DNA of 64,000 nt, taken from positions 1,440,001-1,504,000 of the forward strand of contig CAXXMV010000008.1 of assembly GCA_963662285.2 (NCBI GenBank), given 5' to 3'. The position numbers were made by a program, and so were the translations under genes. Positions 17,676 through 24,719 of this stretch are shown here, one piece after another; position 1 is the stretch's first letter, and each line of letters starts with the position of its first letter. Source of the stretch: a bacterium. GTDB taxonomy: Bacteria > Hinthialibacterota > Hinthialibacteria > Hinthialibacterales > Hinthialibacteraceae. Below the pieces are notes generated by a model. The model did no database searches, was not told the origin of the DNA, and was given only the letters and a program-made list of their open reading frames with translations.

Positions 17676-18632
17676 TTAACTATTCCGACAGATAATCAGC
17701 GAGTGATCGTGTGGAAGACTTCCGCTTTCGAGCAGGAGGTCTTCGCACGCCGCCGCCATCTGCACCATGATGGCATGATCGCGGGAACCTTCTTCATCGA
17801 AATTCCCCATAATGGCCTCAAATAACAGATGTAAAACAGTTCCGCCATAATCCCGTTGTTCGATAATTTCAAACCGCTCGCGTAAAGCAGGGATAATCCG
17901 TTCTGAACAAACCGCCTCAAACGCCATGTGTTGTTTCATAAATTCTAAAGAAGGACGTACAATTCGATCATTGGTTTGTTCTGGATTACGCAAATTAACA
18001 GTCAACTCAGAGGGGAAGCACTTAAGCAGCCGATTGGCGGCATTCAACTGCGCATCGCTCCATTGAAACCGGTCTGGTCCTATAAACTCGTTGGCGATGA
18101 ATAAGCCCCCTGGTTCAAGCCGTTTTTTTAATCCATCCAGACATCTCTCCAGATGAACGAAATGATGCAAGGCCATCGAAACGAATACCGCATTATATTG
18201 CTTATCCAAATCGGCTTGATCGAGAAAATTGGCGTCGGCCACGGTATATCGTACTTTGGGGCTAAAACCTTCCTCTTCAGCCAGTTTTCTGGCTATCTCA
18301 ACTGCTCCCGGACTGATATCAAAGCCATCCATCCGCCCGGTAATATCCCGATCAAGAATTAAACGTTCCAACTCGCCATGTCCACACCCGACATTCAAGG
18401 CGGATTTGACGGGTTTCTTAAAAAACTTATGTTTGATATAGTCCAACCAATCAAGGTCAGGAGAACCGGAGATTCGACGGTTAATGTAACGCGCCAGCAT
18501 AGGCGAATCAAACCAGGAGAGACGCGTTGCGCTCTTTGCCTGACCCCAGAGTTCTTCTTCTCTCAAAGCCATATTGTCATAGTCGGATTCATACGAGGGA
18601 ATGGAAGATTTCCGTTTAGGCATCAGTCTCAT
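17676..18632 (-). CDS. Class I SAM-dependent methyltransferase
   Basis: LNVGCGHG, GFDISPGAV, ALHHF, LEPGG, EFIGPDRFQW. Confidence 0.9.
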   Translation of the reverse strand: MRLMPKRKSSIPSYESDYDNMALREEELWGQAKSATRLSWFDSPMLARYINRRISGSPDLDWLDYIKHKFFKKPVKSALNVGCGHGELERLILDRDITGRMDGFDISPGAVEIARKLAEEEGFSPKVRYTVADANFLDQADLDKQYNAVFVSMALHHFVHLERCLDGLKKRLEPGGLFIANEFIGPDRFQWSDAQLNAANRLLKCFPSELTVNLRNPEQTNDRIVRPSLEFMKQHMAFEAVCSERIIPALRERFEIIEQRDYGGTVLHLLFEAIMGNFDEEGSRDHAIMVQMAAACEDLLLESGSLPHDHSLIICRNS

Positions 18633-18924
18633 CTTTATATTCTTTCAGCATCTGTTCATAGCGGTAACAGCGTGCTTCCAGTTCTTTTAACTTAGTTTTA
18701 TGCTGAGTTAAATCGCTGTCTTTCTGACTGAGTAGATTTTCCAGATTTCCAAGATGTTTAAGAAAATCAGCAATATTCTCTTCTTTGTCGGTCAGCATCT
18801 TTTCGAGATTATGGGCGTGTTCGAGCAAACCCTTGCGATGCTCTTCCGCATCGTACAAACGGGATTTCAGCTCTTCCAACTCCCGCTCTGATATATTGAT
18901 GTTATCTTCTATATTATTTGACAT
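18616..18924 (-). CDS. Small coiled-coil protein
   Basis: Heptad pattern throughout; internal repeat LEHAHNLEKML / LKHLGNLENLL; overlaps the methyltransferase start. Confidence 0.7.
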   Translation of the reverse strand: MSNNIEDNINISERELEELKSRLYDAEEHRKGLLEHAHNLEKMLTDKEENIADFLKHLGNLENLLSQKDSDLTQHKTKLKELEARCYRYEQMLKEYKDETDA

Positions 18925-19120
18925 GATCTTTGGCTAATATCCATTATTTCCGGTCTAAGTTCAATAAGTTTGCATCATTAGAGCGATGGTTAAAATAACG
19001 AGCATCAATGCGTTTGTTAACCGGTCTAGTATTTCTGTATTTTATCATAGTTTTAAGACTAAGCCTCCATCTGAAAGAGAGGTTTGCATAAAAACGTTAA
19101 TATTTGTGTTTAAAAAAGGC

Positions 19121-19157
19121 AAAAAAGCAGGTGAGGTATTTCCAACCTCACCTGCTT
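19121..19157 (-). terminator. Intrinsic terminator
   Basis: 13-bp stem AAGCAGGTGAGGT/ACCTCACCTGCTT followed by T-runs on the minus strand. Confidence 0.8.
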
Positions 19158-19573
19158 ATTAGATATAAACCGTTGTTTCGCTTTGTTTTAACCTACTCAC
19201 AACGGATGTTTTTAGTGTGGCCGGTTAGGGTACACAGGGATCGGCCATAGATTTTGCTACTGCCGTCTACCCATAAGAACAGCAAAACTGCAATCCTTCA
19301 CAATAAACGGTTGATAAATGGCCGCAATAAATCCCGAATCTATATTTACCTGGGAACCATATAATGGTGTAATTCTTTCGCCAAAAGTCAATCAGACTAA
19401 AAAGAGAGTTTCTTGCACTCGCCCACTGAGAGACTGCGAATTGTTGCTCAAAAAAATAACAGTTGTTGAAACAAAAGCAATTCCGGGAAAAACTAAAAGA
19501 CAGACCCATTGCGATGAACCCCTAACCGGCGTGATCCATCCATGGATCTAACTTGCCTTCCCTGGCATGACAT
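19121..19573 (-). ncRNA. Candidate large structured non-coding RNA (~450 nt) of unrecognised class
   Basis: Bounded by a sigma-28 promoter and a terminator; 11-bp long-range helix 19220-19230/19520-19530; nested helices; two ANGGAN hairpins at the 5' end; no credible ORF. Confidence 0.6.
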
Positions 19574-19580
19574 AATTAAA

Positions 19581-19606
19581 TATCGGCTAAAAATGAAAAA
19601 TCTTGA
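19581..19606 (-). promoter_or_regulatory. Sigma-28 (FliA/SigD) promoter
   Basis: Minus strand reads TCAAG-N14-GCCGATA. Confidence 0.72.
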
Positions 19607-19760
19607 TACATAAAAAGTCTAAATCATAAAGCAATTAGAACTTTCCGGTCTTTCGATTGTATTATTATGACTAAGTAGATTATGTATCAATCTGGATATC
19701 CAGTATTTAAAGGATGATCAGGATTTATCATTGGGCAACCTCGGTGGAAGGATCGTTATC

Positions 19761-19788
19761 GGGAAACCACAAGGGAATTGCACCCTAC
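19761..19788 (-). repeat. GTAG-type REP-like sequence (degenerate)
   Basis: Minus strand GTAGGGTGCAATTCCCTTGTGGTTTCCC. Confidence 0.45.
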
Positions 19789-19869
19789 TATTGGTTTGTA
19801 TATTTTTTTGCTAGTATTTATCAATGGATTTTATTTGAGAGTCGAAATAATTAAAAAGGTGAAATTAAA

Positions 19870-21153
19870 ATGAGAAAATGGATTGTTGCGATTGTTTATA
19901 TCTCGATTCTTCTTGGCTTCACGCCCGGCGTGTTCTGCGATGGCATCAAAGCCGGTTTTGCAAAGACAGAGATCACACCTCCTATAGGAGGCAATACGAC
20001 TGGATACTCCTCTGCAAAACCTACAGATGGGGTTCATGATCCTCTCTTCGCCAAAGTTTTGATTCTTCAATCAAGCGGAACAGTTATGGCGATTGTTTCT
20101 TGGGATTCATGCATCTTCAATTCGCCTTGGCTGCATGATCAAATGGCTGATTTGGGCATTGATCACTTGCTGCTTCTTAACACCCATACTCACGCAGGCG
20201 CCAACCTGAATCAAATGGATTTCCCATCAACCGAAAATCCCTGGCGCAAAACCGTGGAGCAACGCACTTTGGAAGCCATCAAAGAAGCCCAGTCTAATAT
20301 GTTTTCCGCTTTTTTCTCGGCTGAAAACGGTGCTATTCAACTGGGATATAACAGGCTGGTACGTCAACCGGAAGGACATTCTCTCACGCAGTTCGAGAAT
20401 CCAGACCGGATTCCTGTTGGTCCGGTTGATCCAACGGTTGGAGTGATCCGCATTACCGATGACGCAGGCAAGAATAAAGTTGTACTGGTTTGCTATGCAT
20501 GTCACCCGGTTGTTTTGGGTCCTAAAAACCGCAAAATCTCTGCTGATTATCCAGGCGTTATGTGCCGGGAAGTTGAAAAAGAATTGGGCGACGGCGTTCA
20601 ATGCATCTTCATCCAAGGCGGCGCGGGAGATATTAATCCGCTGATCTTAGCCCGAACCGGCGATGCTGAATTGGATTTTCCACTGGTGGAACGGATGGGA
20701 ACGCTACTCAGTGAAGAAGTTATAAAAACTTTCAAAAGAATGGAAGATGTTGAAGGAAAATCGGAATGTTTCTCTTATAAATCTAAAACACTTGAAACAA
20801 CCAATCGCTGGGAGCCTGAAAGCAAAATGCCTATCAGCGTAACCTCTGTGTTAATTAATCAGGAAATTGGAATAGTGACAATGCCCGGAGAACCGTTTCA
20901 TAAGTTCCAGGTTGATCTGCGCAATAAGTCAACCCTACCTCATACCTATTTCTTCGGGTATTGCTGCGACTCACCTCATGATTGGGCGCGTTACATTCCC
21001 GATCTTGAATCGGCGGCGCGCAGCGGGTATGGCGCAAGCGATACTACAATAGTTGAAGTTGGAACGGGAGAACGTCTGATAAATCAAGGTTTGGTCATGC
21101 TCTATGAAATGCGGGGTAAATTGATTGATAAACCGCAAAGGGTTGTTAAATAA
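19870..21153 (+). CDS. Neutral/alkaline ceramidase-like hydrolase
   Basis: AGFAKTEITP, HDPLFAK, THTHAG, YACHP, ISADYPG, QGGAGDINP, PGEPF; signal peptide. Confidence 0.85.
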   Translation: MRKWIVAIVYISILLGFTPGVFCDGIKAGFAKTEITPPIGGNTTGYSSAKPTDGVHDPLFAKVLILQSSGTVMAIVSWDSCIFNSPWLHDQMADLGIDHLLLLNTHTHAGANLNQMDFPSTENPWRKTVEQRTLEAIKEAQSNMFSAFFSAENGAIQLGYNRLVRQPEGHSLTQFENPDRIPVGPVDPTVGVIRITDDAGKNKVVLVCYACHPVVLGPKNRKISADYPGVMCREVEKELGDGVQCIFIQGGAGDINPLILARTGDAELDFPLVERMGTLLSEEVIKTFKRMEDVEGKSECFSYKSKTLETTNRWEPESKMPISVTSVLINQEIGIVTMPGEPFHKFQVDLRNKSTLPHTYFFGYCCDSPHDWARYIPDLESAARSGYGASDTTIVEVGTGERLINQGLVMLYEMRGKLIDKPQRVVK

Positions 21154-21380: not shown

Positions 21381-23234
21381 TTACTCCTGTGTTTTATCAA
21401 TCAGTAATATATTAATGGGCGCCATGGGATCCGATGGTGGATTGGTGTGGCAGGTTTTGCATTGATCCAGATCAGCATGATGGCCGTTGGTTTTATGTTC
21501 GGTGTGGCAAGGGATGCACAAAGCATGCATGGCTTCGAAATAACTACGGGCGGCATAGTTGTTCTCTTTGGAATTTTCAATATTTTTGAATAATTCTTGA
21601 TGGCATGTGGTGCATCTTTTTACCGTTACTTTTGATTTTGATTGATCAGCCGGATGACATTGAACGCAGGATTTATTGCCCTTCATCTTTTCTACATGAG
21701 ATTCATGATTAAAAATAGAAGTAGTATTATACATGTCGCTATGACATGACGAGCATGAACTGACGCCATCTTTAGGAAGGTTGGCGTGATGACACTTGAT
21801 GCAGCCTTCTTTGGCGCCAAGCATATCAGATAATCTTTTGGCATGATCCTTATGATCAAACCTGACGAATTCGTTGGAGCGGTTGCCATCAATGGTGAGG
21901 ATATCCAATCCGCGAGCTTCTTGTACGGGAGCATCCAAAGCGCGATAACCGGAGAACGCCGTTCCCGGTAATAGAGCAGCAGTTATGCCTACCACGAGTA
22001 TGCTGATGGTAGAAAATACCAGGACATTCTTTCTGAAACTATCTCCCAGATATACATTGGATACAGCATCAAAGACTGGCGCAGAGTATTTGATTTTATC
22101 CTGAGCCGCTTCTGCATGATCTTCATCAATAAACAGCTTGAAATTTTCTGCGCAGAAGATGTAAACCAAAGCGGCGCCGCTTACCAGTGAGGCGCTGATC
22201 ATGATCTCTATCCACGTCGGAAAATAAACTGATCCAGGTAATTTTTGTATAGCAATAAGACCTACGTCGAAGCGGTATAACACCATACCGAAAACAACCA
22301 TGATGGAACATGCCAGCAGAACATCCGACCTGGCCCGCAGTGAAGCGAATGAAAGCAGGATTGCGGGAATCAAGGCGCTGACCATGATTTCAAAGGTAAA
22401 GAGCATGCTTTGCCAGGAAGGATCGAAAAGCAATCCTATTTGACCGCGGACAGTGAGATCAATCAAACGCAAAGCAACGTAAAGGAATAAGACAATAGAC
22501 GCTGCTTTACCTAATCCAGCCAGTAGGTGTTGTTTGGGTTTATGATTAAAGAGCCATGTGGAGAAGAATGATTCCAAGGTCACCATCATCAAACCAAGGC
22601 CAATGGCGGTTACAAAGAACAATAACGGCAGCAAAGGCGAATACCAGAGCGCATGTAACCGATGAGGCATAATAAGGAATAATGAACCGAGAGAAGATTG
22701 ATGCAGAGTCGAGAGAACGATACCCGCGATAACCAGGGGTATGGTAGCCCATTTGAGCATACGGTGGATGGTTTGCAGCAAGGGATGTTGCAGCCATTTA
22801 TGCTCGAAAACCACTGGAGCGAACTCCAGCGCCAGTACGGTTAAGTAAAGCATCACGCACCAGGCCACTTCAAACAACACGGAATGGTGCTGCCAGTAAA
22901 TCATGGCATGCCAGATGCGCCAGGGGATGCCCAGATCGAACATCAGCCCGATGCCTACAGCGTTATAACCCAAAAACGCCGTTAATACCGCAGGTCGCAC
23001 AATGGGCTTGTATTTATCCAGGTGGAAGATATAAACCGTGGCGGCGATGACAAATCCACCGGCGGCCAGAGCAACGCCTCCCATTACATCGAAGACAATC
23101 CATAAGCCCCAGGGAACGTCATCGCTTAAATCGGTCACTACTCCCAATCCCGAAATAAAACGGGTGATAGCGAGGACGATGCCAACCGAAACCAATGCCC
23201 AAAGAATGGATTTAACTGTATTGAGTCTATTCAT
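21381..23234 (-). CDS. NrfD/PsrC-family (HybB/HmcC-like) membrane subunit fused to a class III multiheme cytochrome c
   Basis: PWGLWI.FDV.GGVALAAGGF, SVLFEVAWC, LSTLHQSSLGSL; C-terminus has 6 CxxCH motifs plus FDHKDH and FNHESH. Confidence 0.9.
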   Translation of the reverse strand: MNRLNTVKSILWALVSVGIVLAITRFISGLGVVTDLSDDVPWGLWIVFDVMGGVALAAGGFVIAATVYIFHLDKYKPIVRPAVLTAFLGYNAVGIGLMFDLGIPWRIWHAMIYWQHHSVLFEVAWCVMLYLTVLALEFAPVVFEHKWLQHPLLQTIHRMLKWATIPLVIAGIVLSTLHQSSLGSLFLIMPHRLHALWYSPLLPLLFFVTAIGLGLMMVTLESFFSTWLFNHKPKQHLLAGLGKAASIVLFLYVALRLIDLTVRGQIGLLFDPSWQSMLFTFEIMVSALIPAILLSFASLRARSDVLLACSIMVVFGMVLYRFDVGLIAIQKLPGSVYFPTWIEIMISASLVSGAALVYIFCAENFKLFIDEDHAEAAQDKIKYSAPVFDAVSNVYLGDSFRKNVLVFSTISILVVGITAALLPGTAFSGYRALDAPVQEARGLDILTIDGNRSNEFVRFDHKDHAKRLSDMLGAKEGCIKCHHANLPKDGVSSCSSCHSDMYNTTSIFNHESHVEKMKGNKSCVQCHPADQSKSKVTVKRCTTCHQELFKNIENSKENNYAARSYFEAMHALCIPCHTEHKTNGHHADLDQCKTCHTNPPSDPMAPINILLIDKTQE

Positions 23235-24021
23235 TATCAGTCTCTTTTAACTCAGTCTCTTTCAACTCAGACTCTTCACCATTGGCGAGTTTCATCCGCC
23301 GTTCAATTATCCAATAAGTTCCGGCCATAACGCCAGCCATGCCAAGAGCGACGGGAGGAACTTTACTCAATGCCGCCCAGGTCAGATCAGGCAACGGTTT
23401 GTCGCCTATGTCCGGCTTCCAGGCCAGGAATTCCAAAGGAACATTGGAGATGTAGAGAACAGATGTTCCTCCAACCTCTTTTTCACCGAAAACTTTATTG
23501 ATATAGCCATCAGGATTATCAGCAATCCGTTGTTTGGCGATTTTAAGCAATTCATCGCGGTCGCCAAAGATAGTCGCCTGCTGTCTACATTCACTGGTAC
23601 AGGCAGGCGAGCCGTCATCTTTGATTTGTTCATAACATAAAGTGCATTTTTGGATATAGGGAACGGGAGATTTCCACTCATAGCGTGGGATGCCGAAGGG
23701 ACAGGCCATCATGCAATAGCGGCATCCGATGCATTTTTTCTTATCATAAATCACAGCGCCTTCGGGCGTTGTTTGCAGCGCTCCAACGATGCAGGCCGAA
23801 GCGCAGGCCGGTTTAAGGCAATGACGGCATTGCTTGCGGACAAAACTGGTCTGGTCATCTTTTTTAATATGCAAGACGCTGGTATATCGCTCGCCGGAAA
23901 GACCATCGCGGGAACGGTAATCTTTTTGGGGGATCGCCGGTAAGCCATTCCGTTTAGAGCATGCTTTAACGCAGTCGCCGCACCCGATACATTTTGTAAC
24001 GTCGGTCAGGATGCCTTTCAT
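23227..24021 (-). CDS. 4Fe-4S dicluster electron-transfer protein (HybA/HmcB-like)
   Basis: CIGCGDCVKAC, CRHCLKPACASAC, CIGCRYCMMACP, KCTLC; C-terminal TM; ATGA overlap with upstream stop at 24018-24021. Confidence 0.92.
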   Translation of the reverse strand: MKGILTDVTKCIGCGDCVKACSKRNGLPAIPQKDYRSRDGLSGERYTSVLHIKKDDQTSFVRKQCRHCLKPACASACIVGALQTTPEGAVIYDKKKCIGCRYCMMACPFGIPRYEWKSPVPYIQKCTLCYEQIKDDGSPACTSECRQQATIFGDRDELLKIAKQRIADNPDGYINKVFGEKEVGGTSVLYISNVPLEFLAWKPDIGDKPLPDLTWAALSKVPPVALGMAGVMAGTYWIIERRMKLANGEESELKETELKETDNE

Positions 24022-24719
24022 ATCGGTTTCACCTCGCCGTGAACCTGGATTTCCACATCGCGTCCTGCTTCCGGCGGGAATTTCCATGCCAGTTCAGAGG
24101 TAACGCGAATAAAGGGATAGAGGATGCAATGAGTTATTTTGCTGAAGGGCGCCAGAATCATTAGAATATTACCCGCCATTGAATGAAAGAACATAGTGGT
24201 TGCATAAGGGACGGGATTATATGGCCTGGACGCGATATAGCCTGTTGTGAAAATCATTAATAAAAGAATTAACAAGAAGTAATCCATGAAACCGCTGATC
24301 TGGCGGGTAGTGCGGGTGAAGATGCGCAATACCAGCAGAATCGCTCCCGATGCTAAAGCGGCTAATGTTATAATATCAGCGATGGATTTCGGTAACGCGG
24401 GCCACCCGAATCCAATTCCCGACCTCCAGAGATTTATATGGTCCATAAGAAATAATGGAACAATAATCAATCCGACATGGAAGATAAATGACGAATAACT
24501 GGTTAATGGCAGGTTACGGTGCAGTCGATGTATGGGAAACATCCATGATATAACTCTTAAAATCATTTTTCCATAAGCATTATCACGATCCCGCGCACGG
24601 TAGATCATCTGGATAATGCCCCAGACGGCAAAGACGATATGCTGTAAAAATCCCAGAACCATAATTATGAAACAGAGCCTGAAGATCGGTCCTTGTGCGT
24701 ATGCCAATATTTCCTGCAT
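24018..24719 (-). CDS. NarI-family membrane cytochrome b (HmcE/TmcC-like)
   Basis: About 5 TM helices; FHVGLIIVPLF..DH, FFHS and PFSKITH histidines. Confidence 0.85.
   Translation of the reverse strand: MQEILAYAQGPIFRLCFIIMVLGFLQHIVFAVWGIIQMIYRARDRDNAYGKMILRVISWMFPIHRLHRNLPLTSYSSFIFHVGLIIVPLFLMDHINLWRSGIGFGWPALPKSIADIITLAALASGAILLVLRIFTRTTRQISGFMDYFLLILLLMIFTTGYIASRPYNPVPYATTMFFHSMAGNILMILAPFSKITHCILYPFIRVTSELAWKFPPEAGRDVEIQVHGEVKPI

Follow-up and report, generated by a model that had tools for sequence, protein, structure and literature searches.

Stand-alone non-coding RNAs that titrate CsrA are known from Gammaproteobacteria, where they comprise CsrB and CsrC as well as RsmX, RsmY and RsmZ. 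The sites bound by CsrA, as set out in a 2020 review of this protein, carry GGA in six-base loops on stems of at most 4 bp, and bridging occurs over distances of 10-63 nt (PMC7652899). The same review describes fliW as anti-correlated with the regulators of Csr sRNAs and poses the joint action of FliW and such sRNAs as a question (PMC7652899). In Campylobacter jejuni, CsrA targets the flaA mRNA and is in turn titrated by it (PMC4894983). The sRNA CJnc170 (FlmR) of this species is transcribed together with the late flagellar genes and acts back on the assembly of flagella; when overexpressed, it reduces flagellar length and motility, effects that the abstract of the study reports without mention of CsrA hairpins (PMC11187230). 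Among the titles and beginnings of abstracts covered by our literature search, no sigma-28-driven CsrA-binding non-coding RNA was found. Sequestering RNAs can also be derived from mRNAs, as is reportedly the case for RsmU of Xanthomonas, which sequesters RsmA/CsrA, and for the CsrA-sequestering fim leader of Salmonella. The consensus of sigma-28 (FliA/SigD) promoters joins a TAAA(G)-like -35 element to a GCCGATA(A) -10 element, the two lying about 14-15 nt apart.

Here we describe a candidate non-coding RNA gene within a window of 64,000 nt (GenBank assembly GCA_963662285.2, contig CAXXMV010000008.1, positions 1,440,001 to 1,504,000) from a genome of the Hinthialibacteraceae, a family belonging to a phylum from which, to our knowledge, there is no cultured member. 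Related loci fall into two classes that share their first segment: class A, which contains the window's own locus and is, as its sequence pattern indicates, a family-restricted non-coding RNA gene, and class B, in which the same segment leads a protein-coding mRNA. Class A may be an RNA decoy for CsrA in bacteria where only a protein antagonist has been known.

Anatomy of the Predicted RNA

The candidate gene occupies positions 19121-19606 of the minus strand, within a 945-nt gap that extends from a minus-strand ORF of 102 aa (start 18924) to a plus-strand gene (start 19870). An initial annotation of this DNA had proposed the gene from its letters, and every element listed there was found again when the sequence was read. 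The sigma-28-type promoter that it described consists of a -35-like element, TCAAG (19602-19606), and, 14 nt later, a -10-like element, GCCGATA (19581-19587), so that the full motif reads TCAAG-N14-GCCGATA, and its use by sigma-28 is predicted. Both elements are conserved in class A: the first takes the form T(C/T/A)AAG throughout the ten members of class A and in the majority of class B leaders, and the second is invariant in the nine class A sequences that were aligned; the same kind of motif also precedes flgM. Transcription is predicted from the position of the promoter to start at about 19571-19574.

Two hairpins follow immediately, and both appear in the minimum free energy fold. Hairpin 1 (19554-19567) is UGCC-AGGGAA-GGCA, with a GGA-containing hexaloop closed by a C-G pair, and hairpin 2 (19533-19548) is GAUCC-AUGGAU-GGAUC, its GGA located 20 nt downstream of the GGA in hairpin 1. 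Both ANGGAN hairpins are thus where the initial annotation had placed them, and they form the most conserved part of the RNA. CsrA sites were judged as short hairpins with a six-base GGA loop flanked by C-A and G, two of them lying 10-63 nt apart, as given in the CsrA review (PMC7652899); here the loops AGGGAA and AUGGAU are C-G closed, the stems measure 4-6 bp, and the two GGA motifs are separated by 20 nt. The first ~45 nt thus hold two predicted hexaloop hairpins 20 nt apart, a geometry that suits one bridging CsrA dimer. Under a loose definition, twin ANGGAN hairpins occur 36 times in the whole genome, and for this reason the weight of the argument rests on conservation and not on the motif count.

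Downstream of the hairpins, the segment GCCGGUUAGGG (19520-19530), the counterpart of the ribosome-binding region in the paralogous mRNA leader, pairs with CCCUAACCGGC (19220-19230) in a perfect 11-bp helix, here termed P1. P1 encloses a variable insert of 289 nt (19231-19519; 183-463 nt in relatives), near the start of which lies a vestigial start-codon segment, AAUGGGUCUG (19501-19510, with the AUG at 19509-19507), kept in relatives as (C)AUGGAUCUG. A 3' hairpin, CCGUUGU...ACAACGG (19170-19205, strands 19205-19199 and 19176-19170), comes after P1 and is followed by an intrinsic terminator (19121-19157), recognised from the sequence and from relatives, with a 13-bp stem (19157-19125), a 7-nt loop and a U run. 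The long-range helix, the 3' stem and the terminator had all been part of the original proposal, and each was recovered in place. The whole RNA, with both ends predicted, would span 19121-19574, or about 450 nt. Folding of a 455-nt RNA gave -138.3 kcal/mol, compared with -117.2 +/- 6.3 for shuffled sequences (z-score -3.33; none of 100 shuffles folded as well).

The surroundings of the RNA gene hold two further arrangements on the minus strand of the window. At 17676-18924, the 102-aa ORF (18616-18924) encodes a coiled-coil protein with a weak PUMA_CC match below the cut-off and overlaps a 318-aa SAM-methyltransferase gene (17676-18632) by 17 nt. At 21381-24087, a 4Fe-4S dicluster protein adjoins a 617-aa protein in which an NrfD-type membrane subunit is fused to multi-haem cytochrome c3/c7 domains.

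Relatives Within One Family

Class A comprises ten sequences, namely the window's locus, L042 and L002-L009, which come from nine genomes of eight genera within one family and from one metagenome contig. A covariance model of the leader matched 15 of the 20 genomes of the family, the window's own included, and none of 15 genomes from the other five families of the class. When 40 other genomes were searched at the DNA level, ten gave matches with E < 1e-3, all from the window's family, and only the first ~100 nt of the RNA were matched in them, apart from one second piece in L002; the rest went unmatched by BLAST because it is too diverged. Pattern scans added little to this set: the scan of metagenomes returned two stretches, of which one, L042, was new and proved a close relative of the window, and all 11 stretches returned from genome contigs duplicated loci already known.

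The initial annotation had noted no RNase P, tmRNA, SRP or intron signatures in this RNA, and in the search of Rfam no family reached its gathering score in the window or in ten related loci. Under permissive settings, 13 weak, chance-level matches well short of the threshold were obtained in 18800-19900 (E 0.34-8), mostly at the terminator and none to a Csr/Rsm family.

The promoter, both hairpins and P1 are common to all ten class A sequences. When 25 leaders were aligned, the hairpins GCC-A-N-GGA-N-GGC and UCC-A-N-GGA-N-GGA were invariant or nearly so, with 92% of cells in the alignment paired; the GGA of the loop is invariant in both hairpins, and the adjoining loop bases vary. The covariation score of these nearly invariant stems in the 25 leaders was 0.055, compared with 0.042 for shuffles, and 71 of 500 shuffles scored as high; the stems lack significant covariation because they hardly vary.

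P1 was recognised in class A by a segment GCCGGU(U/C)AGG after both hairpins that pairs with its complement 183-463 nt downstream. Positions 1-10 of the helix are paired in all ten sequences, and its length ranges from 10 to 15 bp. By our own arithmetic, the chance of a 10-base complement arising within 500 nt is about 5 in 10,000 per sequence. One position of the helix is U-A in seven sequences, U.G in L004 and C-G in L005 and L007, so that two sequences carry a both-sided change. In L005, the partner was taken at 183 nt, where it is homologous to the partner in L004; an exact complement 338 nt downstream was set aside, as it lies beyond a terminator-like hairpin and inside a convergent gene. 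Within this small set of ten sequences, the promoter, the hairpins and P1 are conserved and P1 carries one compensatory change; the covariation of the hairpins did not reach significance.

In a subgroup of four sequences, the consensus fold given by RNAalifold contains both hairpins and P1. It also contains a continuation of P1 in which the AUG segment is paired, as well as the 3' hairpin and the terminator, and both-sided changes are present in these last three elements. The 3' hairpin is present in the window, L042, L002 and L003, among which it shows one G.U pair and one both-sided change, and was not seen when looked for in the other class A genera.

The insert within P1 behaves differently from what had been proposed, namely a large folded domain with nested helices. 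Nested complementarities are indeed present in the window (GGCCAU with AUGGCC, UUUUGCU with AGCAAAA, and a weak AGGA-loop stem), but only the closing helix is conserved, and the insert is variable. Its fold z-score is -0.82 in the window, no better than that of shuffled sequences, and averages -1.51 over the ten sequences, with strongly negative values in L004 and L007 only, and a conserved folded insert was rejected on these z-scores. The AGGA-loop stem is absent from L042, the nearest relative, because positions 19286-19306 are missing there. The longest insert, in L007 (genome G010), measures 463 nt, has a fold z-score of -3.95 and contains internal repeats of ~90 nt (GAUCCGUU ... GGGUUGCGAU units), which resemble a lineage-specific expansion.

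Origin From the Leader of a Self-Processing-Module Gene

Class B comprises a copy in the window's own genome (C2:1678496-1678589), L010-L013, L037, L038, L040 and further leaders. These have the same promoter and two GGA hairpins as class A, followed by a ribosome-binding site and an ORF of 370-460 aa, and the closing helix, looked for with up to two mismatches in the four class B loci L010-L013, was found in none of them. Class B leaders have the sigma-28 motif and two GGA hairpins both in the window's family and in a single sister family; those of another family have one GGA hairpin plus a GGA at the start site.

The class B gene of the window's genome (C2:1677403-1678515; L022:3201-4316, minus strand) encodes 371 aa. 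The C-terminal 160 residues of the class B protein match the calcium-dependent self-processing module of FrpC (PDB 6sjw, E 4.4e-25), and a single copy of it is encoded in 28 of the 35 genomes of the class. The product is a putative late-flagellar, self-cleaving protein under CsrA-type control. At the position of the scissile Asp-Pro, Glu-Pro is found in L022 (the window's own genome) and in L064 (G017); of the other 22 motif matches listed, 21 have Asp-Pro, and the remaining one (L078) matches at a later repeat, where the position is not visible.

As judged from the aligned segments, the 5' module of class A clearly derives from a copied class B leader. The promoter and hairpins are shared, P1 takes up the former ribosome-binding region, and the first codons can still be compared, AUG GAU/GGU CUG in class A standing against AUG GAU CCx in class B. 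The proposal that the RNA mimics a flagellin leader therefore has to be revised, since the leader that was copied belongs to a gene for a self-processing-module protein and not to a flagellin gene.

Non-Coding Nature and Presence in RNA Libraries

The frames that start at the AUG kept after the 5' strand of P1 are 9 to ~89 codons long and encode unrelated products, and in L009 a CUG takes the place of this AUG. No conserved ORF was found in class A. The frames of 80 codons in the window and 73 codons in L042 are both open, and the 36 substitutions between them are split 10/12/14 by codon position; the 80-aa ORF has no Pfam match. A small-protein reading was rejected on these grounds, that is, for want of a Pfam match, of conservation and of a codon-position bias.

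The next gene is convergent in L002, L004, L005 and L009, and a lolD-like gene ends just upstream in L004-L007 and L009. Terminator-like hairpins occur in the window, in L002 and L003 at matching places, at a later position in L007 and at an earlier one in L005. The genes that follow in the window and L042 are on the same strand, ~200 nt past the terminator, and the start of the coiled-coil ORF is found downstream of the RNA in L042 also. That the RNA is a stand-alone, non-coding unit, as first suggested, accords with the lack of a conserved ORF, the convergent gene in at least four relatives and the presence of terminators.

Contigs from RNA libraries that fall on 18600-20000 were recovered from four runs of four metatranscriptome studies, one from each, with lengths of 237-309 nt and all inside the predicted RNA (19233-19541, 19247-19552, 19322-19558 and 19304-19557, with 4-8 differences each), and one further RNA-library contig represents a relative's version. 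None lies in the flanks within 18600-20000 or over 19121-19232, the 3' ~110 nt. These contigs carry no strand, ends or expression level, may include DNA carry-over and come from runs picked with this stretch, and they are taken as support for expression, not as proof. Two of them have an end at 19557 or 19558, which leaves ~15 nt to the predicted start, and two end at 19233 and 19247, adjoining the 3' strand of P1, for which processing or low depth may be responsible.

Flagellar and CsrA Genes of the Host

The partners named in the initial annotation are all present in the genome: csrA (region of C1:77521-77679) with fliW directly upstream, fliA (236.8 bits against a cut-off of 189.6) and flagellins, with seven matches to Flagellin_N. 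The csrA gene is found in all 35 genomes of the class. The flgM gene of the same genome (C6:1039671) stands behind TTAAAG-N-GCCGATAA.

Outside the window, three flagellin genes (C2:713689, plus strand; C2:650058, minus strand; C2:709386, plus strand) have leaders in which a GC-stem hairpin with an A(A/C)GGAU hexaloop precedes a GGA-containing ribosome-binding site by ~20 nt. By its layout, this design is of the classic CsrA type, and the comparison with flagellin leaders that had been recommended thus disclosed the same kind of GGA hairpin in three of them.

A strong sigma-28-type motif, TAAAG-N-GCCGATAA, also stands before a 228-aa DUF5610 protein (C2:486474-487157, minus strand) of this genome; the N-terminus of that protein, MIDPINS..., is similar to the MDPI with which class B proteins begin.

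Proposed Function and Alternative Explanations

The reading that we put forward, to which we give an even chance, is that class A is an untranslated copy of a leader, made by sigma-28, which binds one CsrA dimer and acts as a decoy. The wider claim is held more tentatively: it is conceivable, though somewhat short of even, that class A is the first RNA to antagonise CsrA in a FliW-type bacterium, a leader copy transcribed by sigma-28 that acts alongside FliW in the late flagellar checkpoint and was born by leader duplication and locking of the ribosome-binding site. A class B leader would have been duplicated and freed of its gene, and its former ribosome-binding site locked in P1. Polymerase carrying sigma-28 (FliA) would start near 19573 and stop at the terminator at 19125-19157, and, sigma-28 being active late in flagellar assembly, the RNA would then bind CsrA and lower the level of free CsrA. 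As an RNA antagonist, it would add to the protein antagonist FliW and may help to release flagellin and class B mRNAs. From the promoter, the hairpins and the partner genes, we infer sigma-28 dependence, CsrA binding and this direction of the effect.

With two GGA sites only, one RNA would hold one CsrA dimer and must therefore be abundant. This small number of sites is a point against the decoy, as it is unlike CsrB-type sponges, and the insert does not make up for it: GGA occurs 64 times in the inserts of the ten class A sequences, compared with 59.3 +/- 5.4 in dinucleotide shuffles (3 against 3.7 in the window), so that no enrichment was found there, and the former ribosome-binding segment paired in P1 carries no GGA. 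A multi-site sponge was rejected for lack of this enrichment. The insert, moreover, has no explained role under the decoy reading.

A further difficulty for the decoy comes from an alternative helix, in which the 5' half of hairpin 2 is predicted to pair with the AUG segment at 19501-19510, a segment that is also predicted to be able to pair with 19237-19246. This helix, which breaks hairpin 2, was preferred over P1 in three of ten full-length folds, and one of its pairs varies as A-U, G.U and G-C across the sequences. Such mutually exclusive folds would suit an RNA that is itself controlled by CsrA, either in its stability or in the choice between P1 and the alternative helix, and that acts through some other part, for instance by base-pairing with mRNAs as FliA-dependent sRNAs do in Campylobacter. 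The existence of the FliA-dependent CJnc170 (PMC11187230) and a count of GGA sites unlike that of a sponge point the same way. Outside the leader and P1, however, no conserved seed candidate is present, as the insert varies in sequence and length, and the 3' strand of P1 matches the class B ribosome-binding region of its own genome over 5-6 bases only. We consider such an RNA unlikely.

The hairpins could also be bound by a factor other than CsrA, or merely stabilise the 5' end of sigma-28 transcripts, in which case their likeness to CsrA sites would be coincidental. The near-invariance of the stems (GCC/GGC and UCC/GGA) exceeds the known needs of CsrA and would be accounted for in this way. 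The loops speak for CsrA, on the other hand, given that GGA is invariant in both hairpins of 25 leaders and its neighbours vary; the flagellin leaders of this genome, which represent the classic CsrA targets of FliW bacteria, share the loop type; and every one of the 35 genomes of the class has csrA. Another factor, or mere stabilisation of the 5' end, strikes us as a rather improbable explanation.

A functionless, decaying pseudogene of a duplicated class B gene that has retained its old leader would likewise possess a leader, a former ribosome-binding site and first codons derived from class B, and would be expected to diverge as fast as the insert does: between the window and L042, the insert has diverged by 16%, compared with 6% for the leader and 23% for the part that follows the insert. 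Class A has nevertheless been kept in nine genomes of eight genera, and in the four genomes that hold both classes, the stand-alone copies are the more conserved over the hairpin segment, with an identity of 0.88 against 0.67 for the class B leaders. P1, a new long-range helix, has been retained and shows a compensatory change, RNA-library contigs were obtained in four studies, and three class A genomes (G019, G006 and G005) have no class B match. Decay of this kind is thus very improbable.

Least probable of all is a cis-acting leader or attenuator, or a small-protein mRNA, serving the genes at 18616-18924 and 17676-18632, for which one can cite the same-strand genes that the window and L042 have ~200 nt beyond the terminator and the 80-aa ORF that remains open in L042 as 73 aa through an in-frame 21-nt deletion, but which is contradicted by the convergent next gene in L002, L004, L005 and L009, by an ORF that is not conserved beyond the genus and shows no third-position excess (10/12/14), and by the lack of a Pfam match for that ORF.

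Comparison With Known CsrA-Associated RNAs

As a putative CsrA decoy, class A resembles CsrB/CsrC and RsmX/Y/Z of Gammaproteobacteria, with which it shares the form of a stand-alone non-coding RNA, C-A-N-GGA-N-G hairpin loops, an intrinsic terminator and the proposed titration of CsrA. It differs from CsrB and RsmZ in having two GGA hairpins only, the remainder not being rich in GGA, so that the many GGA repeats typical of these RNAs, most of which lie in hairpin loops, are lacking, and in its sigma-28-type promoter, where CsrB and RsmZ are under BarA-UvrY/GacA control. The host of class A has FliW, a long-range helix encloses a variable insert, and Rfam returns no match. Because of the two sites, the absence of an Rfam match, the other promoter class and the FliW-containing host, class A is not considered a member of the CsrB/RsmZ group. 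It provides a concrete candidate for a Csr-type RNA in a genome with a fliW-csrA pair, and its short, well-defined two-site module makes testing in vitro possible without culturing the organism.

The leaders of hag in Bacillus subtilis and flaA in C. jejuni are likewise similar, as they combine a late-flagellar promoter with a GGA hairpin near the 5' end and a second site ~20 nt away. A conserved coding sequence whose ribosome-binding site doubles as a CsrA site, the mark of such leaders, is found in class B copies and not in class A, which is without a coding sequence and in which the second site is a hairpin and not a ribosome-binding site. P1 ties up what was once the ribosome-binding site, and class A was copied from the leader of the self-processing-module gene. 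CJnc170 (FlmR) of C. jejuni, a FliA-dependent and non-coding RNA, can be likened to class A at the level of its description.

Class A finally recalls RsmU and the fim leader in that a CsrA-type RNA, with binding putative in class A, has its origin in a portion of an mRNA. Those two are processing products or segments of a working mRNA, whereas class A is a separate gene that appears to have arisen by duplication of a leader and that has its own promoter and terminator. It thereby illustrates a plausible route from an mRNA leader to a protein-titrating RNA.
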